In this document: piece by piece, positions 122 to 11,472 of the stretch | How the letters are laid out: every line of letters begins with the position of its first letter | Numbering within the stretch: position 1 is the first letter of the stretch | Assembly: GCA_022452125.1 (NCBI GenBank) | Contig: JAKURJ010000002.1 | Span: forward strand, 1-46,444 | Source of the DNA: Candidatus Poseidoniaceae archaeon | Lineage (GTDB): Archaea; Thermoplasmatota; Poseidoniia; Poseidoniales; Poseidoniaceae | Length of the DNA: 46,444 nucleotides | Reading direction: 5' to 3' | Translations under genes and position numbers: made by a program | Notes under the pieces: generated by a model | Seen by the model: only the letters and a program-made list of their open reading frames with translations | What the model was told of the DNA's origin: nothing | The model's database searches: none

Positions 122-1060
122 ATGATCACTGTACAAGGTGATACCGAATTTGCATCTGTAGAACAGCAGCGCCACCTTTTGGCTACTGCACCTACAGACT
201 ACGACCGCTATGCTGCCGCTCGCATCATGGCTGAAGAACAACGCCACGGATGGCAGATGGCTTACCTATTGATGACTTATTTCGGACAACAGGGGCGAAG
301 AGAAGCTCAAAAGTTGCTAGAACGCAATGCACAGGACGGAGACCGCCTACTTGGTGCATTCAACCGACCAATGCCGCATTGGTTGGATTTCTTCTGCTAC
401 ACAATGTTCGTCGACAGAGACGGTAAGTTCCAACTTGGAATGCTATCCACCTCTGCGTTCAAGCCACTAGCTGCATCCATGGGACCTATGCTCAAAGAAG
501 AGTCGTTCCACCTGGGTACTGGTTCAAATGGACTAAGAAGAATCATCAAGGCTGGAATCATTCCACTGGACATGCTACAGCGCTACATGAACAAGTGGGT
601 TGCAACAGCTCACGACTTGTTCGGAACTGATTCATCCACCTCTGCTCACTGGGCATACGTCTGGGGAGTAAAGGGACGCTGGGACGAGCGTAAGAAGCAG
701 GAAGGCGAAATCGATGTTGACAAAGAAGTTCTCAACGAAGAAAGCCGTGGCCACTACCACGATGAAATCGTAAAGGAAGTCCAGAAACTCAATGGATACC
801 TCCCTGAAGACTGTGGAGTAACTCTATTCGTACCTCACGAAAACTTCCACAGAGACATCGGAGCTTTCGGCGGAAAGAACTGCTACACTAACGGCGAACT
901 GTTCGAAGGAACTGACGAAGAGTATGCAGAATACCTGAAGACTGTACTTCCAACTCCAGAAGATGAAGAAGCACTGAAAGAGATTTTCAAGCAACAGTGG
1001 ATTGAGGACAAACCATTGACTCCTCGCCAACTTGCTAGTGGAATCGGCGCTACTGCTTGA
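122..1060 (+). CDS. PaaA/BoxB-like diiron acyl-CoA oxygenase (ferritin-fold) subunit
   Basis: Carboxylate/His motifs 'MAEEQRHG' and 'KEESFHLGTG' lie ~88 aa apart, as in phenylacetyl-CoA/benzoyl-CoA epoxidase catalytic subunits. The N-terminus looks too short (see finding). Confidence 0.6.
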   Translation: MITVQGDTEFASVEQQRHLLATAPTDYDRYAAARIMAEEQRHGWQMAYLLMTYFGQQGRREAQKLLERNAQDGDRLLGAFNRPMPHWLDFFCYTMFVDRDGKFQLGMLSTSAFKPLAASMGPMLKEESFHLGTGSNGLRRIIKAGIIPLDMLQRYMNKWVATAHDLFGTDSSTSAHWAYVWGVKGRWDERKKQEGEIDVDKEVLNEESRGHYHDEIVKEVQKLNGYLPEDCGVTLFVPHENFHRDIGAFGGKNCYTNGELFEGTDEEYAEYLKTVLPTPEDEEALKEIFKQQWIEDKPLTPRQLASGIGATA

Positions 1061-1069
1061 GGTGAGAGA

Positions 1070-1603
1070 TTGATCCCCGTCTCGCTCTACGGAGCCGACG
1101 AAGCGGAATTAGAACGCTTCTACTCGGTTTTACCAGGTCTTGTTAGCGACGCCTATGAAGATAGGCCGTACCAGGAAACATTGTTTTCTGTAACAGGTGA
1201 GGATGTGATTGAACACATCGAATTAGCTGATGCTTGGGCTAAACACACTCCTTTTGCATGGCCAGAAGATGTCGTGATGGAAGTCAATATGGCAATTCAA
1301 ACAATCAAGTACCCCGATGTTGGATTACTTGAGCACCTTCTGACTCTTGAGAATGTAGACTGCTGTAGAGTTTCAACATGGATGCACTTTGAGACCAATG
1401 TCTATCCGATATACAGTGAAAAGGCGTGTGAAGGCTTAGAGAAAATGGGCCTACCTACACCTTTCTTGCCAGGCGATATTGCATCTTATGGACTGTATGT
1501 CCAGCGACTGGAAGGACTAAAACTCCACGCACCAGCCGAAGGAATGCCGGAAATCGGGCTACCTAGAGCCCGTATCCTGCAACTCGGCTTGGAGCGATTC
1601 TGA
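1070..1603 (+). CDS. Hypothetical protein (177 aa), translationally coupled to the upstream oxygenase gene
   Basis: TTG start 9 nt after the upstream TGA, preceded by GGTGAG. No recognisable motif. Confidence 0.45.
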   Translation: MIPVSLYGADEAELERFYSVLPGLVSDAYEDRPYQETLFSVTGEDVIEHIELADAWAKHTPFAWPEDVVMEVNMAIQTIKYPDVGLLEHLLTLENVDCCRVSTWMHFETNVYPIYSEKACEGLEKMGLPTPFLPGDIASYGLYVQRLEGLKLHAPAEGMPEIGLPRARILQLGLERF

Positions 1604-2499
1604 TGAAAAATGCATCAACTCACGCTAAATTACTAGCTGTTGCATTCATTTGGGGCTTGGGCTGGGTAGCAGGAAGAGTAGCAGCACGTGACATCCCCCC
1701 TTTCACGGCGGGCTGGGCAAGGTACATTCTCGCAGTAGGATGTTTTTTCCTATTCTTGTTCGCAACAAAGCAATGGGTCACGCCATCTAGAGATCAATGG
1801 AAAATAATCACTGCAATTGGATTCTTGTCTACTTTCTTGTACCAGGCATTCTTCATGTATGGAATGAAGTGGACCGCTGCAGGTGACGCTTCTCTAATGA
1901 TAACATTCAATCCACTATTGACAGCTATACTTGCTGTACCGTTCCTAGGCGAGAAATTCGACAAACGGCTTGGGTTAGGATTACTATCTGCGGTTTGTGG
2001 TGTTGCAGTGATTGCATGGTACTCTCCTAATGTCGATTTGCCCGTGAATGAAAGATTGCTAGGTGACGCACTAATCGCTATGTCAGCACTTTCATGGGCT
2101 TGTACAACCATTCTGATGAAGAAAGCGATGAGTGGGGAGAATGCTCTGTCGCCACTCCACCTAACGGTATGGTCAAGTGCGGTTGGATTACTGATCCAAA
2201 CCCCCGCTGTAATTTGGGAATACTCGCAGGTTGGATTCCCTATGAACGCAGGTTTAGATGCGTGGGCGTGGTTGGCATTCTTGGCGATTTTCTCCACTGT
2301 ATTGAGCTATGTTTGGTTTGCAGATGGAATCAAAATCATCGGTGCAGGTAGGTCTGCAATGTATGTTTACTTGGTACCAATATTCGGAATTCTAAGTGGC
2401 TGGTTATTGCTTGATGAGAAATTAGGATTCTCACTCATCGCCTCATTTGTTCTGATTGTAGGCGGAGTATATCTCGCTCAATCCAAGGAATTGTCATGA
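1603..2499 (+). CDS. EamA/DMT-family transporter (10 TM)
   Basis: About 10 hydrophobic helices arranged as two repeated EamA-like halves. The start overlaps the upstream stop (TGATG). Confidence 0.8.
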   Translation: MKNASTHAKLLAVAFIWGLGWVAGRVAARDIPPFTAGWARYILAVGCFFLFLFATKQWVTPSRDQWKIITAIGFLSTFLYQAFFMYGMKWTAAGDASLMITFNPLLTAILAVPFLGEKFDKRLGLGLLSAVCGVAVIAWYSPNVDLPVNERLLGDALIAMSALSWACTTILMKKAMSGENALSPLHLTVWSSAVGLLIQTPAVIWEYSQVGFPMNAGLDAWAWLAFLAIFSTVLSYVWFADGIKIIGAGRSAMYVYLVPIFGILSGWLLLDEKLGFSLIASFVLIVGGVYLAQSKELS

Positions 2500-2523
2500 A
2501 CCTAAATCCCATCGGACGCTAAC

Positions 2524-3408
2524 ATGGGAATCAGTTCTGTAGCAGTAATTGGTGCTGGAACTATGGGAGCAGGTATTGCTCAAGTATGTGCACAAGCCGG
2601 TTGGCATACCAACCTGTATGATGCATTTCCTGAAGGCCTAGAACGTGGAATGAATACAATTGATGCGTTTTGGGACAAAGGCATCGCTAGAGGGAAAACT
2701 ACTGCTGAACAAAAAGCCGAATGGGCAGAAAATCTTCATGCTGTATCAGACATGCATGAAGCGGTAAAAGATGCTGACCTTGTAATCGAAGCTGTCCCTG
2801 AAATCCCAGATTTGAAGCACAAAATTTTCGCAGAACTTGGTACAATGACAAAGGAAGATTGTATCCTAGGAACTAACACTTCTTCCCTTTCTATCGCCGA
2901 TATTGCTGCTGCATCTGGCAGGCCAGAGAAAGTCATTGGAATGCATTTCTTCAATCCTGTACCAATCATGAAATTGCTTGAACTAATCAAGCATGACTCA
3001 TGCTCTGAAGAGACGATTCAAGCGGCTACGGCTGCCGGTGAAGCCATGGGGAAGACCACTATTCTCGTCAAGGATGTACCAGGATTCGCAACATCTCGAC
3101 TTGGCGTTGTTCTCGGCAATGAAGCGATTCGAATGCTTGCAGATGGAGTTGCCAGCGCCAAAGACATCGATACTGCGATGGTCTTAGGGTACAAGCATCC
3201 GATGGGACCACTCGCTCTTACTGACCTCGTTGGCCTGGATGTGCGCAGAGACATTCTATTGAATCTGAAGAAATCATTCAACGATGATTCATACACACCT
3301 CACCCACTTCTTGAGAAATTGATTGCAGAAGGACGCTTAGGCAAGAAATCCGGCAAAGGAATCTATGACTGGTCATCGGGGTCCGCTGAAGAAACCGAAC
3401 TTCCCTAA
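2524..3408 (+). CDS. hbd: 3-hydroxyacyl/3-hydroxybutyryl-CoA dehydrogenase
   Basis: N-terminal Rossmann motif 'VAVIGAGTMGAGIAQV', 'NTSSLSI', 'GMHFFNP', and a C-terminal 'GRLGKKSGKG(I)YDW' typical of HBD/FadB family members. Confidence 0.85.
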   Translation: MGISSVAVIGAGTMGAGIAQVCAQAGWHTNLYDAFPEGLERGMNTIDAFWDKGIARGKTTAEQKAEWAENLHAVSDMHEAVKDADLVIEAVPEIPDLKHKIFAELGTMTKEDCILGTNTSSLSIADIAAASGRPEKVIGMHFFNPVPIMKLLELIKHDSCSEETIQAATAAGEAMGKTTILVKDVPGFATSRLGVVLGNEAIRMLADGVASAKDIDTAMVLGYKHPMGPLALTDLVGLDVRRDILLNLKKSFNDDSYTPHPLLEKLIAEGRLGKKSGKGIYDWSSGSAEETELP

Positions 3409-4730
3409 TCTCTGTAATCCTCTTCATCCTTATGGAAAATAATCAGATGTTCAACATCTCCAGAATAGTTCCTCAACTGGCTGCTCAATTGCTTCAGTGT
3501 CGCATTCCCGTGGACAACTGTAGCGACAGTTGGACCGTTTGACAATTTCAACAACTCCAAAGTCAGATTTGGAGTTGAATAATGCCCTGACCACTTCAAT
3601 TTTGAAATCGGATTTTTGTCCCATTTAGGCTGCAAATCTACCGCTTTGGATTGAAGCCAACACCATTTAGAAAGACAATCACTCAGGAGTTCTCCTCTCA
3701 AGATTAAACTAGCATCTTCAACATATAGCCAATCTAGATGTTCGGTAATATCGCCGTGAACCAATGTCACCTTGATTCCAAAATTGTACTTCCTCTCATC
3801 TCTAGGAATCGGCCTCAAAGCCCTCGGGTTTCCAATCAATGAGTCAACCCATTGGTAGTATTCTCTGAATGTCCACGAATTAGCATGCGGGCAGGGTAAA
3901 TATGGTGGCCCATTTTCTGGCCAGTCTAGATAATCCATGTATCTTTGATACCATGAATCCTTATCCGGATGGCCGGGCCATCTTTCGGGTAGCTTCTTCG
4001 TTTTCTTCTTCAAATCCTTAGGAGTTAATCTCCTTTCATGGATTAGAGATGCAAGGAAGTCATTGACATCTACCTTCTCATTTCCGAGATTCTTGACTCT
4101 GAATACCTCAGCCTGCACTTCCCTTACCCCATCGATATCGAGGTATGGTATTGGCCATTCACCTCTACCTATGTGCTCCACGCAAACATCCTTCTTAGTA
4201 CTCAAAATAATCTGTGAATATGCAAACCATTCCGGGACTACTTCTGCATGCTTCCTATCTAGGATAATCAAGCCTCCATCTCTAACATGCGATGCTAATT
4301 TTGGAATGATATCTGAATAAGAATTCCTACTTCTATTCTCAACAAATGGCTCTAACCAATCAAGATACAGAATATCGACTAATGGTAAATCCTCAATCCC
4401 TTTACTCGCATCTTTTTGCCTCATCACCAACATGTTTTGATACCCTAATTCCGGACTTCTGTACGCTCTTCCTCCAATCAGCGGGTTAGCTATCCTAGCA
4501 AAATATTCCATCCTTAAACTGGTTTCAAGGAATGGCATATCATCGGGATATCTCGGTCCCAATTCATCACAAAATAGTATGAAGGGTTGGTCGTTTTCTA
4601 CCATAATTGACCATGAGTTAAGGTAATTCATATCAGCTGCTGGATGGTATACGATTAGCGGTCTATCCCTCGCCTTAGGAAAGGGTACAGAGGAGAATAA
4701 TTCACCATTTTTCCACATCATGAAAATCAC
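3405..4730 (-). CDS. Hypothetical 441-aa protein (island gene 4). The N-terminal half is weakly class-I methyltransferase-like.
   Basis: GTG at 4730 directly follows the upstream TAG, with AGGAGG 6 nt upstream. An alternative ATG at 4721 sits behind AGGTGAT. 'VDILYLDW...VRDGGLIILD' resembles TylF/Methyltransf_24 beta4/beta5 motifs, but no GxGxG was seen. The C-terminal half is unrecognised. Confidence 0.55.
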   Translation of the reverse strand: MIFMMWKNGELFSSVPFPKARDRPLIVYHPAADMNYLNSWSIMVENDQPFILFCDELGPRYPDDMPFLETSLRMEYFARIANPLIGGRAYRSPELGYQNMLVMRQKDASKGIEDLPLVDILYLDWLEPFVENRSRNSYSDIIPKLASHVRDGGLIILDRKHAEVVPEWFAYSQIILSTKKDVCVEHIGRGEWPIPYLDIDGVREVQAEVFRVKNLGNEKVDVNDFLASLIHERRLTPKDLKKKTKKLPERWPGHPDKDSWYQRYMDYLDWPENGPPYLPCPHANSWTFREYYQWVDSLIGNPRALRPIPRDERKYNFGIKVTLVHGDITEHLDWLYVEDASLILRGELLSDCLSKWCWLQSKAVDLQPKWDKNPISKLKWSGHYSTPNLTLELLKLSNGPTVATVVHGNATLKQLSSQLRNYSGDVEHLIIFHKDEEDYRD

Positions 4731-5309
4731 CTAAACCCTCCTCGGGTGCCCAGTGGGAACTACCCTGAAAATCCTCTTTGTCTGCCTTGATAGTCTCGGG
4801 TATTGCGTGGCAATACTTACTCCAAAGGGAGCGCTTTTCGCGGTATCAATGATTTTGTCTCTATGCAATGTTACAATGTGTGCTGTGCATAATTTCCCTC
4901 TCTCATCCGGGTCGGATGGAGGGTCAACCGAGTAGAAGCATAGCAAGAACAAATCATCATGTTCAACCAATTCGTCGATACAATAACTCAATCTTCTCAA
5001 ATCATGGTTACAATATGCTAGTTGCAAACCGTACGGTTGCAAAGCATTTGACCAAGTATGCGGTGATTGTGAGTTGATGATTTTCTTGAAATGATCAGGG
5101 TCCACATCTGCACCTGTACTTCTTGCCAGCATAGCAAGCGTAGTAGGGACACAAGATGGTCCAACCTGCTTGACGTGCTTGATGTCTAAGTCTGTAAAAA
5201 ACGGACCCTTTGGCTCATTTCCAGATTCTTCATCCCACAAAGGGGCGCTAGCATTCGGTTTCCAATTTTTCATTGCATCACTGTTGTTTCTTTCTTTCAT
5301 TACCATCAT
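4731..5309 (-). CDS. Papain-fold cysteine peptidase, C39-like (island gene 3)
   Basis: 'KQVGPSCVPTTLAMLARSTG' fits the Q-x5-C-[GV]-P-x-x-LAM nucleophile motif. 'CTAHIVTLHRDKIIDTA' fits the H-[FIY]-V-x-L ... D motif of C39/C39-like peptidases. TGAGGTGAT lies upstream of ATGATG. Confidence 0.5.
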   Translation of the reverse strand: MMVMKERNNSDAMKNWKPNASAPLWDEESGNEPKGPFFTDLDIKHVKQVGPSCVPTTLAMLARSTGADVDPDHFKKIINSQSPHTWSNALQPYGLQLAYCNHDLRRLSYCIDELVEHDDLFLLCFYSVDPPSDPDERGKLCTAHIVTLHRDKIIDTAKSAPFGVSIATQYPRLSRQTKRIFRVVPTGHPRRV

Positions 5310-5315
5310 ATCACC

Positions 5316-6080
5316 TCACAAATACATCCAATCATCCGGCCTACCATTTGGCCACTTCTTGTTCCATTCATCATTCGCTTTCCTTCTCTTGACCTCTTGT
5401 TCGTGCAGGATTTCCCAAATGTGGTAATCTGCAATTAAAATCTCAATGAGATCCCTCAGATTTTCTGGAAATGTTGACTTGCTAGGATAGACAAATGTTG
5501 ACCATCCCTCATACTGCTTGAGCTCTAATCCTTTGACGTAATCAGGAAAATCACAGAATCCCAATCCGTCATCCGTGATTCCAGTGTCTATCTTCCAAGT
5601 TGCCTGAGACGCCTCTAGATACTCCATATGTACGCCAAGATTGCTCTTTCTTCTAGCACCATTTCTGATTGCTTTCAGAGAAGGGCCATACCTTTCCAAA
5701 GTATTTGGCGGCAACCAAATCGAAAATTCCATACTCGCATCAAATGAGAACTTAGAGCCGTATTTCCCCTCAATGGTGAAGGTGTTCTCCTTCAGAGAAA
5801 TCGAATCGTTCTCATCGACATATTGAGCAAAATCAATCCATTTCTGTTTCAAATCTGCTTCTTCTTTTTGACTCAATAAAGATTCTTTGTCCCATTTTGA
5901 GGGCTTATATCCTAATGGTAAAAGCATGATTCCTAACATATCTTTAGGCCATTCAATCCACTTTTTACCAACATTGGGATTAGATTTGTTATGAGATTTT
6001 ATCGCCATCAAATCAAACTCTAAGGTATCAATCTCGACATCCCAATCTATGTTTTCCCAACCGTCGAATTCCTCACTCAT
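5316..6080 (-). CDS. Hypothetical W-rich 254-aa protein (island gene 2)
   Basis: ATGA overlap with the upstream gene and GAAGGAGGG 8 nt upstream of the ATG. No family recognised. Confidence 0.5.
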   Translation of the reverse strand: MSEEFDGWENIDWDVEIDTLEFDLMAIKSHNKSNPNVGKKWIEWPKDMLGIMLLPLGYKPSKWDKESLLSQKEEADLKQKWIDFAQYVDENDSISLKENTFTIEGKYGSKFSFDASMEFSIWLPPNTLERYGPSLKAIRNGARRKSNLGVHMEYLEASQATWKIDTGITDDGLGFCDFPDYVKGLELKQYEGWSTFVYPSKSTFPENLRDLIEILIADYHIWEILHEQEVKRRKANDEWNKKWPNGRPDDWMYL

Positions 6081-6517
6081 TGGAAAGCCCTCCTTCTAGA
6101 CTCAGTTCTATTTGGATGACAGGTCATGCATGTTGTGTTGATACAAGGCCAAGAGTAATCGTTGGCGATTGAGTCAATGGATCCCTCCTGCTGCATTTTT
6201 TGCCAGAAAGGCCTGGTACAATTCCAAGTATCTACCCAAATATGGGATTCTGGAAACGCTTTCCTGATGTCAGAAATCATAGCTGATCCATGTCCAGAAA
6301 ACCTTGCATCTGGATTGTAGACAATCACATTGTGAATCTCGACATTCCTGTCGTTGACAAAAATCCAACAATTTGATGTTGGCATTCTGCCGTTGTATAT
6401 CCAGCAATTTTCTTTTCTAGGGTGTTCACAAAATGGACCGATTCCGTTTATTGAAACGGTATTTTCATCTATTTTGCACGCTTGTTTTTTGTTTTGTTTT
6501 TTTGTATTTATTTTCAT
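6077..6517 (-). CDS. Small Cys-rich GNAT-like acetyltransferase (island gene 1)
   Basis: The ORF track starts at 6595, but that extension runs through the tRNA. ATG 6517 is preceded by AAGGTGAT. 'VIVYNPDARFSGHGSAMISDIRKAF' fits the GNAT motif A (R-x-x-G-x-G) and 'RPFWQKM' fits the following helix. A C-terminal 'C-x4-C-x2-C-H' cluster is present. Confidence 0.5.
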   Translation of the reverse strand: MKINTKKQNKKQACKIDENTVSINGIGPFCEHPRKENCWIYNGRMPTSNCWIFVNDRNVEIHNVIVYNPDARFSGHGSAMISDIRKAFPESHIWVDTWNCTRPFWQKMQQEGSIDSIANDYSWPCINTTCMTCHPNRTESRRRAFQ

Positions 6518-6534
6518 TTTATCACCTTGTTGAA

Positions 6535-6609
6535 TGGCCAGGGTACCGGGACTCGAACCCGGGTCGACAGTTCCGCAAACTGTCATGATATCCACTACAC
6601 CATACCCTG
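6535..6609 (-). tRNA. tRNA-Arg (anticodon GCG), CCA encoded
   Basis: Hand-folded cloverleaf: 7-bp acceptor CAGGGTA/TACCCTG, anticodon stem ACAGT/ACTGT with loop TTGCGGA, T-arm CCGGG-TTCGAGT-CCCGG, discriminator G plus CCA. Confidence 0.85.
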
Positions 6610-6626
6610 ATTGAAAACCAAACCAG

Positions 6627-6698
6627 CGAGGGTACCCGGATTCGAACCGAGGTCAAGTGGTCCGTAGCCACTTATGCTATCCACTACACCATACCCCC
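6627..6698 (-). tRNA. tRNA-Arg (anticodon ACG), no encoded CCA
   Basis: Hand-folded cloverleaf: acceptor GGGGGTA/TACCCTC (one G-U), D-arm GTGT/GCAT, anticodon stem AGTGG/CCACT with loop CTACGGA, T-arm CTCGG-TTCGAAT-CCGGG. 54 of 72 positions are identical to the neighbouring tRNA. Confidence 0.8.
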
Positions 6699-6740
6699 AT
6701 TGGTTTGATTGCTCAGCGACTTAGAGCCGCTGAAGCATAC

Positions 6741-6778
6741 GCATTTCGAATCGAAATGCAATTTTGCAATAATTGCAA
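6741..6778. repeat. Two adjacent palindromes (GCATTTCGA-A-TCGAAATGC and TTGCAAT-A-ATTGCAA) upstream of the tRNA pair
   Basis: Read directly: 9+1+9 nt at 6741-6759 and 7+1+7 nt at 6764-6778. Confidence 0.7.
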
Positions 6779-6931
6779 CATTACTGAAGTAATTTTCAGA
6801 ATACATGGGATCGAACTCGACTGCGATGTCGACCCAACCTAGTGAAATATCCTAATTGCATGGTATCACCATTTCTCCGTTGCAACATAGCCGAGGCCGT
6901 CATTACGTAAAAAGATTTCGGTATTTTCTAT

Positions 6932-6951: not shown

Positions 6952-7196
6952 CGTAGTTGCCATATTTTCCCGTAACCTGCTCAGTGCATTAATGTTATTT
7001 AATTATAAATTTTAATTACAAATATTGGCGATTTTGTTACTTTTTCGTGATTTTACAGTTAATTTTATACAAAAAAACGACAAAATGTGATTTTCAAAAT
7101 TATTTTCCCTCGATTTGCACCCTCATTTGCAGATTTATTTTTTACAACCGAGTGAAAATGCGCCAAAACTATGTGCTCGAGATTAATCCGGGATTC

Positions 7197-8132
7197 ATGA
7201 ATGTCCGCTTGTTATTGGTTTGCTCAATTCTAGCAATAGCCCCTCTTAGCGGATGTATCGGGGATGATTCTGACAGCAGCGATTCGGAATCGATGTGTTC
7301 TGGCGGTGTCTCGGATCAAGATTTGATTGGAATGTGGACCAAATACACAGACCCAGATTTGACACCTAGAGAGATGCATATCCGTTCTAACTTAGAAAAA
7401 ACAGGTTACATTCTGGATGATGATTTTGCTTCCACTTATTGTTGGACTGCAGAAAACTCAGAGCTTGTGGAGTACGTGAATTACCCACAATGGTCTGCAA
7501 CGCACTACATGTTCTCAAATTACCATGTAGATGGCGACTTGTTATTCCTTGGAAATGTGTATAGCGAATGGATACATGAAAATGGAACAAGTGCAGGTAT
7601 ATCATATAACGACAAGCCTACAGAATGCAATGTATTTCATAGAAAAGGAGTCTTTTCTGATAATGAGACCATCAACTCAACTATCCTCTCAACCGAATAC
7701 CCTGAGTTCTGTACTTGGGTATTCGCAGACCCAAGTGGAGCACACCCTGGTGATGCTTGGAACGCAACATACCTAGCTCAAGACCACTCAGATGGTGTTT
7801 CTACATCTGCAACGGACAATCTTATGACCATTGAAATCGATGAATTCCACGGAGAAATAGACTGGTATGTTTCAGAGGGTTACTTTGGCTTCTGGGTACA
7901 ATTGACCGTGAATAATCAGACACACCAATGCGATTCTGGAGGGGAATCCGAGTGTTTGATTACATTCTCGGGCGTTGACGAGGATTATGCCGTATGGGAA
8001 GAAGGTGAAATCGCAACGTTAACGGAAAACGGTGTTGACATTTGCTCTGTATCTTGTGAAGTCGAAATTACAAGATTTGGAGTGCGCGAAGAGGATACTC
8101 TGTTTGGAAACACAGAGATAACAATCGAATGA
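7197..8132 (+). CDS. Secreted acidic Cys-rich lipoprotein, unknown function
   Basis: 'MNVRLLLVCSILAIAPLSGC' is a signal peptide plus lipobox. A Ser/Asp linker and many N-x-S/T sequons follow. The track start at 7047 runs through AT-rich promoter-like DNA; ATG 7158 is also possible. Confidence 0.6.
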   Translation: MNVRLLLVCSILAIAPLSGCIGDDSDSSDSESMCSGGVSDQDLIGMWTKYTDPDLTPREMHIRSNLEKTGYILDDDFASTYCWTAENSELVEYVNYPQWSATHYMFSNYHVDGDLLFLGNVYSEWIHENGTSAGISYNDKPTECNVFHRKGVFSDNETINSTILSTEYPEFCTWVFADPSGAHPGDAWNATYLAQDHSDGVSTSATDNLMTIEIDEFHGEIDWYVSEGYFGFWVQLTVNNQTHQCDSGGESECLITFSGVDEDYAVWEEGEIATLTENGVDICSVSCEVEITRFGVREEDTLFGNTEITIE

Positions 8133-8185
8133 TTTTCTCTAAGAAAATAACAATCCATTAAGAGTCGTTTCTTCTAGAGGCGTTC

Positions 8186-8737
8186 ATGGAAGTTAGCCGT
8201 GAAATGATTAGGACGTTCACATTTATTGCCGGTCCTTTGGTTTTGGTTAGTTATGGCCTAGCTCTATCAAAGATGGATGATAAAGCAGCACTCTGGGGTG
8301 GAATCCCAAGTTCATGGATCACCTACATTGTGCCATTCATGTTCTTGGCAGCGATTGGATTCCTGATGTACTGGTGGGTTGCTTTATTCCAGATTGAAGT
8401 ATCAGTTCTTGATTCATTGAGATGGCCATGGGGCGAATCTGATGGCAACGGAGCACAAAGGATTCTTCTCGCATATGCATTATTCCTAATTCCATCCATG
8501 TTCTGGATTGACAGTACTCGAATGCACATCAACAATGATTATTCTTGGACTCCATTCTTGGTGATTGGAATCCTTGCACTAGCATCGATAGTCAACATAA
8601 TGTTTGGACTGCTAGCCTATGGCGCATATCAAGATGGAGTTGACGGTTCAGGACTGATGCTACTCGGCTCGATTTTCTTGGGAATACAGGTTATTGTCAA
8701 CGACCTAATTGTTTGGTCTGCCAAATTCCCTTGGTAG
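8186..8737 (+). CDS. Integral membrane protein (about 5 TM), unknown function
   Basis: Hydrophobic helices throughout; no motif recognised. Confidence 0.5.
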   Translation: MEVSREMIRTFTFIAGPLVLVSYGLALSKMDDKAALWGGIPSSWITYIVPFMFLAAIGFLMYWWVALFQIEVSVLDSLRWPWGESDGNGAQRILLAYALFLIPSMFWIDSTRMHINNDYSWTPFLVIGILALASIVNIMFGLLAYGAYQDGVDGSGLMLLGSIFLGIQVIVNDLIVWSAKFPW

Positions 8738-8739
8738 AA

Positions 8740-9261
8740 TTAGGTAACCAAGAATTCCTCGATGATTACCTGTGTCACAGCCAATGCGAAGAATAAAGCA
8801 AAGGCAGCGGCAATGAAAATCGCGATTCTATTTTTGCGATACCACTCGTGCTCACTCATATTTTCATCAAATTCTTTCAATGTCTCTTTGACATCTTCGC
8901 GGGCCTCATCAACAAAATCTTCCAACGGCTGAGTTAAATCGTCCAATGCCTCAACAATAACCGAACCCTTTGGGTCAGTCTCTTCCCAGTTTGGTCTGAA
9001 GTAAGCATAGATTTTAATGAGAACAAATCTGTACACGAATATAAGGAACAATAGAGCAAAAAAAATCACGCCATCCAAGACAAACATTACTGCAACCAAA
9101 GGAAGAATAGAAAGGAACCAAAACACCTCTACGAATAGTGGACCATCATTCAACTTGGGATTATTGAACCAATTGTTGTCCTTGTTATTGGGAGTGGGGC
9201 AGGTTCTTCTGTCATGACCTTCCTTTCTACAAATTCCACATTTCCTTGCGATGTATATCAC
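8740..9261 (-). CDS. Membrane protein with an N-terminal CCHC zinc knuckle
   Basis: The GTG start overlaps the upstream stop (GTGA). 'CGICRKEGHDRRTC' is C-x2-C-x4-H-x4-C. Two TM helices, an acidic segment and a C-terminal TM helix follow. Confidence 0.55.
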   Translation of the reverse strand: MIYIARKCGICRKEGHDRRTCPTPNNKDNNWFNNPKLNDGPLFVEVFWFLSILPLVAVMFVLDGVIFFALLFLIFVYRFVLIKIYAYFRPNWEETDPKGSVIVEALDDLTQPLEDFVDEAREDVKETLKEFDENMSEHEWYRKNRIAIFIAAAFALFFALAVTQVIIEEFLVT

Positions 9262-10031
9262 CTATCGTTCGAAAAATTAGGTTTGCGTTTTGAGAGGAAT
9301 GCATCAATTCCCTCTGCGAAGGATGCGGTTGTCCCAGCAGCTTCGATCAAAGTTTGCTCATGCTTGAGATGGGTCTCGAAGTCATTCACGTTCTGAGTCA
9401 ACAGCAGATGCTTTGTCGCTTCTTTTGTGTGGCTTCCCCACTGTGACCAGGTGTTTGCAATCTCGATGGCTCTCTCGATCAAATCGTCCTCAGAAACCAC
9501 TTCGTCGATTGCTCCGAGTTTGCAGGCATCCTCTGCACTCCAAACTTGGTTTTCAAGGAAGAAACGACGGGCAGCCTGTTCACCAACCAAGCGTGGAAGT
9601 AGCCAGGTTGTTCCACCATCGGGAGAGAGACCGATTCCAGAATAGGAGGCTGCCATCTTTCCATTTGGGCTGGCAATTCTTGCATCACATGCAAGAGCAA
9701 GACCAAGCCCGCCACCTGCAGATGCACCATTCAGCGCAGCAACGAATATTGTCTTGGAGGTGCGCATCTTAACCAGCATTGGATGAAGGATATCGGTTAG
9801 TTCACGAATCAATTCAACGCTGTCTCCATCATCGATTGACTTCTGAAATGCCTTGATATCTGCACCTGCAGAGAAGAACTTGCCTTCTCCGGTAATGACA
9901 ATCGCTTTGCAACCAATGTTATCCATTACTGCATCTCTAATTTTTGGAAGAAACTCTCTGCTAAAAGACTGAGTTGCAGAACCGCCCGTAAGTTGGATGA
10001 GAGTTACTCCGTCTCTCTGGCTTACTTCCAT
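9258..10031 (-). CDS. Enoyl-CoA hydratase/isomerase (crotonase family)
   Basis: 'ITGEGKFFSAGADI' and 'GASAGGGLGLALACDARIA' are oxyanion-hole motifs. Confidence 0.8.
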   Translation of the reverse strand: MEVSQRDGVTLIQLTGGSATQSFSREFLPKIRDAVMDNIGCKAIVITGEGKFFSAGADIKAFQKSIDDGDSVELIRELTDILHPMLVKMRTSKTIFVAALNGASAGGGLGLALACDARIASPNGKMAASYSGIGLSPDGGTTWLLPRLVGEQAARRFFLENQVWSAEDACKLGAIDEVVSEDDLIERAIEIANTWSQWGSHTKEATKHLLLTQNVNDFETHLKHEQTLIEAAGTTASFAEGIDAFLSKRKPNFSNDR

Positions 10032-10035
10032 GATA

Positions 10036-11472
10036 TCACAGCTTTACATTGACGTTCTTCACTTTCGTGTAGAAGTTGAGAGCATCCTTAGATTGCTCGA
10101 TACCAATCCCTGAGTGCTTCCATCCTGTGAATGCTGTTTGTGGGAATGTTATCGGGTATTCATTGATACTAACCATTCCAGATTCGACATCTCTTGCGAA
10201 CTTGTGAGCACGGGATAAGTCGTTCGTCCAGATTCCGTTTAGCAGTCCAAATGGAGTGTCGTTAGCCAAGGCGAGCGCTTCTGAATCCTCGCTAAACTTG
10301 GTTACTGCAAGAACTGGTCCGAATAACTCCTCTTGGAACAATAGGTTGTCAGAGGATACACCAGTTACTACGGTTGCTTCCATGAATGCGCCTTCTCTGT
10401 CTAGTGCATTTCCACCGCATGCGATTTCTCCACCTTGTTCCAATCCCTTGGATAGCATGTCAAGAACATCGTCCCTGTGAGAAGTGTGAACCATACTTCC
10501 CATTCTAACTCCATCTTCCATTCCTGGACCAACTGGCCACTTGGAAATCTCAGCTACAATTGCTTCCACCAATTCATCGTGAACATCTTCATGGACAATT
10601 AGTCGAGAACCAGCCCAGCACATTTGTCCAGCATTCATGAAAATTCCGAAGCATACTGCCTTTGCACAATACTTCAAGTTAGCATCAGGGAATACTACGT
10701 TTGCTCCTTTGCCACCCAATTCTAGAGTAACTGGCGTCAGATTTTCGCTAGCTTTTGCCATGACTGCTTGCCCGGTAGGAACTCCACCAGTTAGCACGAT
10801 ACCATCAACTCCGGAGTGGCCAGCCAGTGCATCTCCAATCAATCCACCAGAACCTGTGATTACTTGCAGTACATCTGTTGGAAGTCCAACCTCTGCTTCC
10901 TGCATTGCCTTCATCCAAGCGATTAGAGAAAGTGGAGTCCATGAAGCCGGCTTTGCAATAACAGTACAACCTGCTGCAAGAGCAGGGGCGATTGAACGAA
11001 TTGCTAATTGTAGCGGGAAATTCCATGGCACGATGTGAGCGGTTACACCTAGAGGTTGCCTCAAAGTGTAGTTCAAGCGATTTCCAGGAACAGGAATTGT
11101 ACTACCTTCTATCTTATCAGATAGCCCAGCGAAATACTCCAAAGTCCAAGCGCCATAGCGGATTTCACTCAATGCTTCACGGAATGTCTTTCCATTGTTG
11201 GAAGATTCTATCGCTGCTAGACTCTTTGCGTTAGCATAGGTTGCTGCCGCCATCTTTTGCAAAATCCTCCCTCTTTGTGCTGGGTCCATAGCAGCCCAAT
11301 CTTTGGAATTAAGTGCCGCCCTAGAAGCAGCAACACATCGCTCAACATCTCCAATTGTAGCCTTAGGAGTTGTCGCAATTACTTCACCTGTAGCGGGGTT
11401 CAGTACATCAGAAGTTGAACCGTCCTCAGAGTCAATCCATTCACCAGCAATCAACATTTGTTCGCTCGCCAT
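10036..11472 (-). CDS. NAD(P)+ aldehyde dehydrogenase
   Basis: 'LIAGEWIDS...NPATGEVIA', 'ELGGKG' and the catalytic 'NAGQMCWAGSR'. ATG 11472 is preferred over the TTG at 11499. Confidence 0.85.
   Translation of the reverse strand: MASEQMLIAGEWIDSEDGSTSDVLNPATGEVIATTPKATIGDVERCVAASRAALNSKDWAAMDPAQRGRILQKMAAATYANAKSLAAIESSNNGKTFREALSEIRYGAWTLEYFAGLSDKIEGSTIPVPGNRLNYTLRQPLGVTAHIVPWNFPLQLAIRSIAPALAAGCTVIAKPASWTPLSLIAWMKAMQEAEVGLPTDVLQVITGSGGLIGDALAGHSGVDGIVLTGGVPTGQAVMAKASENLTPVTLELGGKGANVVFPDANLKYCAKAVCFGIFMNAGQMCWAGSRLIVHEDVHDELVEAIVAEISKWPVGPGMEDGVRMGSMVHTSHRDDVLDMLSKGLEQGGEIACGGNALDREGAFMEATVVTGVSSDNLLFQEELFGPVLAVTKFSEDSEALALANDTPFGLLNGIWTNDLSRAHKFARDVESGMVSINEYPITFPQTAFTGWKHSGIGIEQSKDALNFYTKVKNVNVKL

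Follow-up and report, generated by a model that had tools for sequence, protein, structure and literature searches.

A comparative analysis of 46,444 nucleotides (nt) of DNA from a Candidatus Poseidoniaceae archaeon (contig JAKURJ010000002.1, assembly GCA_022452125.1; this whole stretch is called the window and all positions refer to it) suggests that it encodes a leader-peptide feedback unit, which would sense the decoding of CGN arginine codons (N, any nucleotide) and supply both the tRNAs that read them and a set of proteins that can be made without them. We assign this reading a probability of roughly 55%. In the order proposed, the unit comprises an archaeal promoter, a CGN-rich leader peptide encoded in a structured RNA, a tRNA-Arg(UCG) or tRNA-Arg(ACG), a tRNA-Arg(GCG) and an operon of genes, A to D in the window, that lack CGN codons. 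Its features, from upstream to downstream, are the following.

6907-6922, minus strand: putative archaeal-type promoter, with a B recognition element (BRE), CCGAAA, at 6916-6921 and a TATA box, TCTTTTTAC, at 6907-6915.
6796-6861, minus strand: leader upstream open reading frame (uORF), with the Shine-Dalgarno (SD) sequence GGTGAT, start codon ATG 6861 and 21 codons, encoding MQLGYFTRLGRHRSRVRSHVF.
6809-6834, minus strand: hairpin P1, inside the uORF and holding its CGN run (GGUCGA-CA-UCG...CGA-GU-UCGAUC), from RNAalifold and pair counts.
6764-6778, minus strand: hairpin H3, a TTGCAA palindrome between the uORF stop and the first tRNA.
6740-6760, minus strand: hairpin H4, between the uORF stop and the first tRNA, with compensatory pairs.
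6711-6736, minus strand: hairpin H5, nearest the first tRNA, with compensatory pairs.
6626-6698, minus strand: tRNA-Arg(ACG), from ARAGORN, scoring 56 bits against the Rfam tRNA family.
6535-6609, minus strand: tRNA-Arg(GCG), from ARAGORN and Rfam, 16 nt after the first tRNA and 17 nt ahead of the A start codon.
6077-6517, minus strand: A, an ORF of 146 amino acids (aa), predicted GNAT.
5316-6080, minus strand: B, an ORF of 254 aa, acidic and Trp-rich.
4731-5309, minus strand: C, an ORF of 192 aa, predicted C39-like Cys-His-Asp enzyme.
3405-4730, minus strand: D, an ORF of 441 aa, two-domain and methyltransferase-like.

The four protein genes are tightly coupled. A and B overlap by ATGA at 6077-6080, a 6-nt gap (5310-5315) separates B from C, C and D abut at 4730/4731, and the SD sites of A to D are AAGGTGAT, GAAGGAGGG, TGAGGTGAT and AGGTGAT, respectively. 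An earlier reading made from the letters of the window without database searches (the sequence-only reading) had described the ORFs, junctions, SD sites and both tRNA-Arg genes in the same way, and only the start of D needs refinement. Since homologues of D begin with MMWKN or MLWKN in the family alignment and AGGTGAT precedes this position, the true start is probably ATG 4721, 4-10 nt past AGGTGAT, which would give a protein of 438 aa and a gap to C of 9 nt, not 0. At its other end, D converges on a 3-hydroxyacyl-CoA dehydrogenase gene (Pfam) with a 4-nt overlap at 3405-3408.

In order to follow the unit beyond the window, we assembled 88 loci, including 80 metagenome loci retrieved with a profile of C, and also compared five GTDB species representatives. 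The closest genomes belonged to the Poseidoniales (Marine Group II archaea), for instance the metagenome-assembled genome (MAG) UBA10, with 96% amino-acid identity. Synteny was kept in the five representatives and in the 80 metagenome loci, in agreement with the earlier view of the four genes as one coupled unit without assignable function: none of the four proteins was above a Pfam threshold, matched NCBIfam or gave a PADLOC match. Homologue clusters numbered 71 for D, 37 for B and more than 200 for C, all of them unnamed hypothetical proteins from Poseidoniales and Thermoplasmatota MAGs and marine metagenomes, while A had just 25 representative homologues among 1.8 billion proteins. C was the slowest-evolving and invariant member, with 61-86% identity across the order Poseidoniales; the identity of D fell to 35-37% across the loci. 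Gene order inside the unit varied (ABCD, BCD, BACD, B-E-C-B' or E-C alone, E being a further small family described below), A, B and D were each absent from some lineages, and the outer flanks changed as well, 31 loci showing 16 different families on the upstream side and 40 loci showing 20 on the downstream side.

The tRNA genes accompanied the operon throughout. All 59 loci for which the upstream DNA sufficed had a co-oriented tRNA-Arg(UCG) or tRNA-Arg(ACG) directly ahead of the first gene, and in most of them tRNA-Arg(GCG) came next. No other tRNA gene was found in any of the 88 loci. In the window only 17 nt, containing the SD site, separate the last tRNA from the start of A, and a run of five or more T in the spacer between tRNA and first ORF occurred in only 1 out of 62 loci. 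A promoter of its own for the operon would not fit into this spacer, so that tRNAs and operon are probably co-transcribed. The sequence-only reading had taken the tRNAs as a site for acquired cargo, and it had missed both the absence of CGN codons and the CGN-rich structured leader; the linkage indicates instead that the tRNAs are part of the unit and not the marker of an integration site. In the most divergent locus (L006, 5137-9341; D 37% identical), tRNA-Arg(ACG) precedes A-B-E-C-B' and tRNA-Arg(UCG) immediately precedes D, so that each part of the split operon still stands behind a CGN-decoding tRNA.

The first tRNA of the window has adenosine at anticodon position 34 (A34). Comparison of 76 distinct tRNA sequences identified tRNA-Arg(ACG) as orthologous, by position and by sequence, to the tRNA-Arg(UCG) of sister lineages, and it was also present in loci L001, L002, L006, L011-L013, L015, L017, L021-L025, L029, L038, L040, L047, L049, L067 and L068. 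A sequencing error is improbable, since we counted eleven distinct ACG sequences, differing at stem positions. These genes flag an archaeal A34 tRNA, contrary to a review stating that A34 tRNAs are absent from archaea (PMC8072771). As the uORF of the window lineage contains three CGA codons, either inosine at position 34 or another CGA-reading tRNA would be required, and the A34 tRNA-Arg would imply wobble inosine or an unusual decoding of CGA. A motif scan for a TadA-like deaminase ([HC][AVS]E...PCxxC) gave no match in the window.

The arginine codons of the operon are strikingly uneven. In the window, A to D contain 0 CGN and 57 AGR codons (AGA or AGG; 10 in A, 8 in B, 12 in C and 27 in D), compared with 300 CGN and 340 AGR in the 42 other genes (P ~2e-16), each of which holds at least one CGN. 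When the 88 loci were pooled, cluster genes showed 14 CGN and 3441 AGR codons versus 2836 CGN and 1835 AGR (61% CGN) in the flanks, C had no CGN among its 871 Arg codons, and none of the 289 flank genes with at least six Arg codons was free of CGN. CGT, CGC, CGA and CGG were depleted by log2 -5.8 to -7.8 (about 100-200-fold) in cluster relative to flank genes, no codon of any other amino acid was shifted beyond log2 0.65 (about 1.6-fold), and the TTR/CTN split of Leu and the AGY/TCN split of Ser were ordinary. The CpG dinucleotide is not avoided, because NCG codons were slightly enriched in cluster genes; likewise, it is a tRNA isoacceptor and not the amino acid that is avoided, since A to D are not poor in arginine (3-7%, compared with about 4.6% in other genes). 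At the invariant arginines of C, AGA and AGG alternated among 82 distinct genes (e.g. 43:37) and CGN never appeared, although AGA to CGA and AGG to CGG are single synonymous steps. This pattern points to purifying selection against CGN and not to compositional drift or a general expression bias.

The opposite usage was found in the leader. A promoter block, ACCGAAAnnTTTTTA, was conserved in an alignment of 23 diverse loci; assigned from the archaeal promoter consensus, its BRE and TATA box predict a transcription start near 6886. The SD and ATG of the uORF lie about 45 nt downstream of the TATA box, and an in-frame ATG at 6888, near the predicted start, potentially gives a leaderless version of 30 codons. 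The uORF reads ATG CAA TTA GGA TAT TTC ACT AGG TTG GGT CGA CAT CGC AGT CGA GTT CGA TCC CAT GTA TTC TGA, with its Arg codons in the order AGG, CGA, CGC, CGA and CGA and four CGN inside seven codons. An SD-led uORF of 15-26 codons with at least three CGN was present in 45 out of 57 loci and in 12 out of 2850 shuffled controls. Across the order we recorded 35 distinct uORF peptides with the common motif R-[LW]-[GD]-R-x-R-x-R-V-R, in which Arg made up 23% of the codons (201 CGN versus 52 AGR, 47 of the latter being AGG, largely at the conserved first Arg) and synonymous swaps among CGN codons kept the arginine across clades. The leader thus carries what defines an attenuator peptide, a translatable uORF with SD, start and stop and a cluster of the sensed codons.

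The RNA around this uORF is also constrained. The leader (6699-6895) folds at -59.8 kcal/mol (z = -3.76), a value matched by none of 200 shuffles, and 12 base pairs showed compensatory changes, all in H4 and H5. The hairpins were paired in 94% of alignment cells versus 25-48% in slid controls, and none of 500 shuffles reached the observed value. P1 was invariant in the close clade, and in other clades codon changes preserved its stem by eye (TCGGC/GCCGA in L059, CGTC/GACG in L072 and AACGGC/GCCGTT in L083). An Rfam search of the leader region returned the two tRNAs only and no leader family.

Among the proteins, C appears to be the core. Q48, C53, H144 and D155 were invariant in 28 sequences, and Foldseek searches with an AlphaFold2 model (pLDDT 82.9) matched the C39 domains of ComA, PCAT1 and LahT150 (probability 1.0, E ~1e-3, target TM-score 0.6-0.67) as well as papain-like toxins (CdiA-CT, 8ssk/8ssm; 9l5u). 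The model has a papain-like fold with Cys, His, Gln and Asp, the catalytic residues being placed from the sequence. Membership of Peptidase_C39_2 at the sequence level was not reached (E = 0.024, 15.6 bits versus a cut-off of 24), the family matched this Pfam profile weakly in 9 out of 28 members and at profile positions 2-46 only, and a C profile found no match in the PDB. No ABC transporter or Gly-Gly leader ORF occurred inside the unit in the 88 loci. The earlier call of a C39-type papain fold therefore stands at the level of the fold, and C is predicted to be a C39-like Cys-His-Asp hydrolase or transferase.

A is small and basic (isoelectric point, pI, about 8.6), with a FWxKM segment and a C-terminal Cys3-His knuckle, WPC-x4-C-x2-CHP. 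A family profile matched RibT (E = 3e-6) and SACOL1063 (E = 2e-4) in the PDB, with about 80 residues aligned to solved GNATs; motif A, R-x-x-G-x-G, is conserved, contains the invariant G75 and aligns with motif A of both structures. Acetyltransf_1 and Acetyltransf_7 of Pfam each matched 8 out of 14 A members (best E for Acetyltransf_1, 1.2e-5), although A of the window itself lies under every Pfam threshold. These matches bear out the GNAT assignment of the sequence-only reading, and we predict that A is a genuine small GNAT acyltransferase. The longest ORF for A starts at GTG 6595, its additional part (6517-6595) crossing into tRNA-Arg(GCG), and public gene calls of the A homologues P0229, P0231 and P0246 have N-terminal extensions of translated tRNA (...GCGPTDLGSIPS...), which are annotation artefacts.

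For B, family alignment and profile searches with the 37 homologue clusters gave no Pfam or PDB match, and hhalign detected no relationship to D. The protein is acidic (pI 4.8) and Trp-rich, ends in the invariant sequence KWPxGxPDDWMYL, and is the fastest-evolving component of the unit. B of the window (5316-6080) is 50-52% identical to its counterparts in L002 (8651-9412) and L003 (132-893), whereas A, C and D of these loci are 82-93% identical to those of the window (C and D, 86-93%). This difference indicates that B alleles have probably been replaced between lineages while the last 13 residues stayed invariant. The terminal M-Y-L fits the hydrophobic-Tyr-X (HbYX) pattern of proteasome docking, which we dropped as a main hypothesis.

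D had no Pfam, NCBIfam or PDB sequence match. In its AlphaFold2 model (pLDDT 87.9, pTM 0.86) the first ~215 residues are Rossmann-like, and the 50 Foldseek matches listed, all weak, were almost exclusively class I methyltransferases. The best were TrmI, YtqB, TrmR, MycE and NodS (E = 5.6e-3 or weaker; probability 0.94-0.96 for the best), with target TM-scores of about 0.4 and a root-mean-square deviation of 6-9 Å, and TylF-like enzymes as well as several methyltransferases of tRNA were among the matches. Strand beta2 ends in an invariant acidic residue, D55, whereas motif I, which binds S-adenosylmethionine (SAM; E/D-x-G-x-G-x-G), is replaced by a conserved L-I-V-x-H-P-[GA]-A. Of the TylF-like methyltransferase remnant suggested earlier, the weak fold resemblance holds and the GxGxG is missing, so the N-terminal domain can be called class I SAM methyltransferase-like only weakly. 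The C-terminal alpha/beta domain was unmatched and the protein ends in an acidic-aromatic tail, DEEDY.

A fifth small acidic family, E, stands ahead of C in about 60 loci (L018, about 1855-2093; L021-L088, between B or the tRNA and C), even where C is the sole other gene, and is also free of CGN. In these proteins of 65-87 aa, an N-terminus rich in Lys and Asn and a long amphipathic helix are joined in some cases by a CxCPxC...C motif, and the acidic tail (...WPDDFEEDWE, ...FSKEWL or ...GFREEWE) has an invariant Trp at the penultimate position. They had no Pfam or PDB match. The acidic C-terminal tail and Cys motifs presumably recall those of the amino-group carrier LysW, and the search gave no LysW match. 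An acidic-aromatic tail closes B, D and, elsewhere, E, and A and C are basic (pI 8.6 and 7.7) amid an otherwise acidic proteome. A hidden Markov model (HMM) built from E was not significant on B (E > 0.5), which leaves the resemblance between E and the tail of B anecdotal.

The linkage to the tRNAs, the exclusion of CGN, the conservation of the uORF, the covariation of the hairpins and the assigned folds are observed here, and co-transcription, the direction and physical mechanism of regulation and the biochemical target of A to D are inferred. Ribosomes on the leader would report the capacity for CGN decoding. When decoding is poor, they would stall at the CGN run within P1, and the stall would alter how the leader folds or what becomes of it, letting more transcript continue into the tRNAs and the operon. 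A to D, using AGA and AGG only, would remain translatable while CGN-decoding tRNAs are limiting, and under this model that need is the reason why the operon is kept free of CGN. The products would form a soluble enzyme set around C, with A, D and B as accessories, plus E in most other lineages, acting most likely on tRNA-Arg, Arg-tRNA or the translation apparatus in order to restore or manage CGN decoding. Such a target is favoured because the exclusion concerns an isoacceptor and because the operon is linked to the genes of these very tRNAs. A side suggestion in the sequence-only reading, an aminoacyl-tRNA-related module, points the same way as the new evidence.

Several points weigh against this proposal. 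Co-transcription from a single promoter is suggested by spacing, and the uORF could instead encode a functional Arg-rich micropeptide. The leader of the window contains no oligo-T run, the usual archaeal terminator signal, and its repeated TTGCAA palindromes permit alternative pairings for which no covariation was found. As far as we know, attenuation mediated by ribosomes has not been established as a mechanism in archaea, and a full-text literature search yielded no leader peptide controlling tRNA genes. C39-fold enzymes are known to act on peptides, not on RNA, and no RNA-binding domain was recognisable in the proteins of the unit. Finally, as A, B and D are each missing somewhere, no component other than C, together with E, can be indispensable to the logic, and the window lacks E, with just the gap at 5310-5315 separating B from C; the window clade has lost it.

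We weighed this reading against five others. The sequence-only reading leaned towards cargo acquired horizontally at a tRNA integration hotspot, a low-GC islet possibly for defence or toxicity, and the adjacent tRNA genes, the uncharacterised families and a GC content 4 points under the rest of the window would suit it. The contrast in GC exists (41.4% versus 45.7%), but the values of 33-37% against about 50% first put forward were overstated, the lowest 400-nt windows being 38-39%; the GC content at third codon positions (GC3) is 0.42 in the block and 0.42 ± 0.03 in the other genes, so the lower GC reflects amino-acid composition and not foreign codon usage. The protein skew reported alongside it is likewise present and only moderate, with Trp at 3.4% versus 2.0%, Lys+Arg at 12.4% versus 9.1% and a mean pI of 6.8 versus 5.5 in A to D and the other window proteins. 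The tRNAs are upstream, co-oriented and 17 nt off, not a disrupted attachment (att) site. No integrase was found among the flanking genes of the window (Pfam) and no att-type or tRNA-derived repeat at the locus, absences already remarked on at the outset, and C had no relatives in viral contigs of IMG/VR, plasmids or phages. The dehydrogenase gene directly abutting the tRNAs without the block, an arrangement that relatives might have preserved, was seen in 0 out of 88 loci. The locus thus has no recombinase, tRNA 3' repeat, patchy distribution or atypical codon usage of the kind that marks genomic islands at tRNA genes, nor, by PADLOC, a match to a described anti-phage defence or toxin-antitoxin family. 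Together with the order-wide synteny, these results argue that the block is vertically inherited across the order Poseidoniales and not a recently acquired islet, which we find scarcely credible. A 21-nt imperfect direct repeat (76% identity) does occur at 3383-3403, just past the D stop, and at 6727-6747, in hairpin H5 about 30 nt upstream of the first tRNA; it is probably due to chance, as the unit is not mobile. In a different account, the operon would be a mere passenger, its Arg codons chosen by very high expression or drift and its uORF either fortuitous or the source of an unrelated micropeptide. A tRNA promoter could drive strong transcription, and low GC at codon positions 1 and 2 favours AGR. 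Nevertheless, translational selection would skew many codon families, and here CGN alone departs strongly; AGA/AGG turnover at invariant sites is saturated without a single CGN, and the uORF is conserved as a peptide across the order through synonymous CGN changes. We consider this account very improbable.

An arginine-starvation operon could follow a logic of selective charging, in which CGN isoacceptors lose their charging first, the leader senses the loss and AGR-only genes stay readable, their proteins supplying or sparing arginine, for instance by intracellular peptide processing, with the tRNAs as co-regulated passengers. Sensitive codons in a leader and robust codons in the response genes are what isoacceptor-charging theory, reportedly set out by Elf et al. 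2003, predicts, C has a peptidase fold, and the likeness of E to LysW would fit as well. However, A to D are not arginine-poor, the ban on CGN is absolute and more extreme than known starvation codon biases, the unit holds no arginine-biosynthesis enzyme, E has no match to LysW, Pfam or the PDB, and CGN tRNA genes lying between sensor and operon (59 out of 59 loci) are left unexplained; on balance this explanation is unlikely. We regard as rather less probable a domesticated, toxin-antitoxin-like brake, in which the basic enzymes C and/or A would deacylate or N-acetylate Arg-tRNA(NCG) and so inactivate it, or would disable another translation component, the acidic B or E would inhibit them, and a CGN-free operon would let the inhibitor be resynthesised during the arrest. 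GNAT toxins that acetylate aminoacyl-tRNA exist (TacT, AtaT), the structural neighbours of C include papain-like interbacterial toxins with immunity proteins (the CdiA-CT and 9l5u structures), and basic and acidic proteins could be paired, A (pI 8.6) with B (4.8) and elsewhere E with C (7.7). Against it, toxin-antitoxin or immunity pairs are unlike this unit, which is universal, syntenic and vertical with a well-conserved C; several lineages do without A, neither a PADLOC match nor an antitoxin of the RHH/DUF1778 type was found, and one papain-like interbacterial toxin that has been described targets GyrB and ParE, not tRNA (PMC12136450). Slightly less credible still is a module for peptide or protein maturation, similar to those of ribosomally synthesised and post-translationally modified peptides (RiPPs) or of another kind, in which C cleaves, A acetylates and D methylates the acidic-aromatic tail of B or E, the tRNA linkage offering nothing but a strong promoter. 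C39 domains serve as leader peptidases, GNATs and methyltransferases typically act in tailoring, and the invariant end of B and the WPDDFEEDWE end of E with its invariant penultimate Trp would be fitting substrates. This leaves the codon ban and the CGN leader unexplained, no double-glycine site, ABC transporter or class-defining RiPP enzyme was found in the 88 loci, and the E HMM misses the B tail.

The leader-peptide feedback reading can also be put in its boldest form, which we hold to be tentative and doubtful. The unit would then be the first ribosome-mediated leader-peptide circuit in Archaea and the first in any domain to control tRNA genes; its codon-insulated enzymes would act on tRNA-Arg(NCG) or Arg-tRNA, with C working on (aminoacyl-)tRNA as a new activity for its fold and the GNAT and the methyltransferase-like protein being tRNA-Arg-specific modifiers, and A34 would imply archaeal wobble inosine.

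Around the unit, the neighbourhood (122-3408 and 9258-11472) resembles fatty-acid or aromatic-acid catabolism, with a PaaA/PaaC-like protein, an EamA transporter, 3-hydroxyacyl-CoA dehydrogenase, enoyl-CoA hydratase and aldehyde dehydrogenase, and is retained in closer relatives only. A stretch of lower GC extends past the tRNAs (7047-9261, 0.35-0.44), and its three genes have no Pfam families, contain CGN and lie outside the unit:

7158-8132, plus strand: Cys- and Asp-rich protein with a probable signal peptide.
8186-8737, plus strand: membrane protein.
8740-9261, minus strand: protein of 173 aa.

Marine Group II, which has not been cultured, ranks with the most abundant archaea of the surface ocean, and an order-wide unit in such organisms is noteworthy in itself. 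It offers testable cases of three situations that, to our knowledge, have not been described: tRNA genes under feedback from a leader peptide built of the codons that their products read, attenuation coupled to the ribosome in archaea, and an operon from which selection excludes one codon family, so that it is translatable when the matching tRNAs fail. It would also open a functional route to four orphan protein families (five if E is counted), expected to be tied to the decoding of CGN.

Judged on evidence that is comparative and computational throughout, the unit is rated as lying outside the known kinds of system, and a full-text search for the Poseidoniales tRNA-Arg/C39 unit itself gave no prior description. 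C shares the papain-like fold and the Gln...Cys / His...Asp arrangement with ComA, PCAT1, LahT150 and Peptidase_C39_2, but it is predicted to be a stand-alone cytosolic protein with neither ABC transporter nor double-glycine substrate, it scores below the Pfam threshold, and it has an N-terminal WKPNxSAPLWD motif and a basic C-terminal hairpin. Similarly, A resembles TacT, AtaT and ItaT as a small basic GNAT, and its tie to tRNA makes an aminoacyl-tRNA substrate conceivable; it differs in having no DUF1778 or ribbon-helix-helix (RHH) antitoxin, in standing nearest to RibT and the SACOL1063 type, and in being missing from many lineages that keep the unit. Regarding gene organisation, thrU-tyrU-glyT-thrT-tufB also has tRNA genes co-transcribed with a downstream translation-related protein gene, although such operons have no cognate-codon leader peptide or codon exclusion. 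In pylTSBCD a tRNA gene is likewise followed by a co-oriented dedicated protein operon and inherited with it as a cassette, whereas the present unit includes no aminoacyl-tRNA synthetase or biosynthesis enzyme, its tRNAs are ordinary essential CGN decoders and there is no sign of recoding. The partitioning of expression by the codons of one tRNA recalls bldA (tRNA-Leu UUA) and the TTA regulon of Streptomyces, but with the logic inverted, since nearly all genes need the tRNAs and the attached operon is exempt, and bldA has neither a leader peptide nor an attached operon. The bacterial attenuators hisL, trpL, thrL and the pheST leader are alike in their short SD-led uORF with a run of sensed codons (here 4-6 CGN in 16-26 codons, compared with 7 His in 16 codons in hisL), followed by conserved hairpins and located upstream of genes tied to that aminoacyl-tRNA. 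In contrast to them, the leader of the window has no hairpin-plus-oligo-U terminator and only a putative antiterminator alternation, the host is an archaeon, the unit would control cognate tRNA genes and an enzyme operon instead of amino-acid biosynthesis genes, and that downstream operon has been purged of the very codons that the leader would sense.

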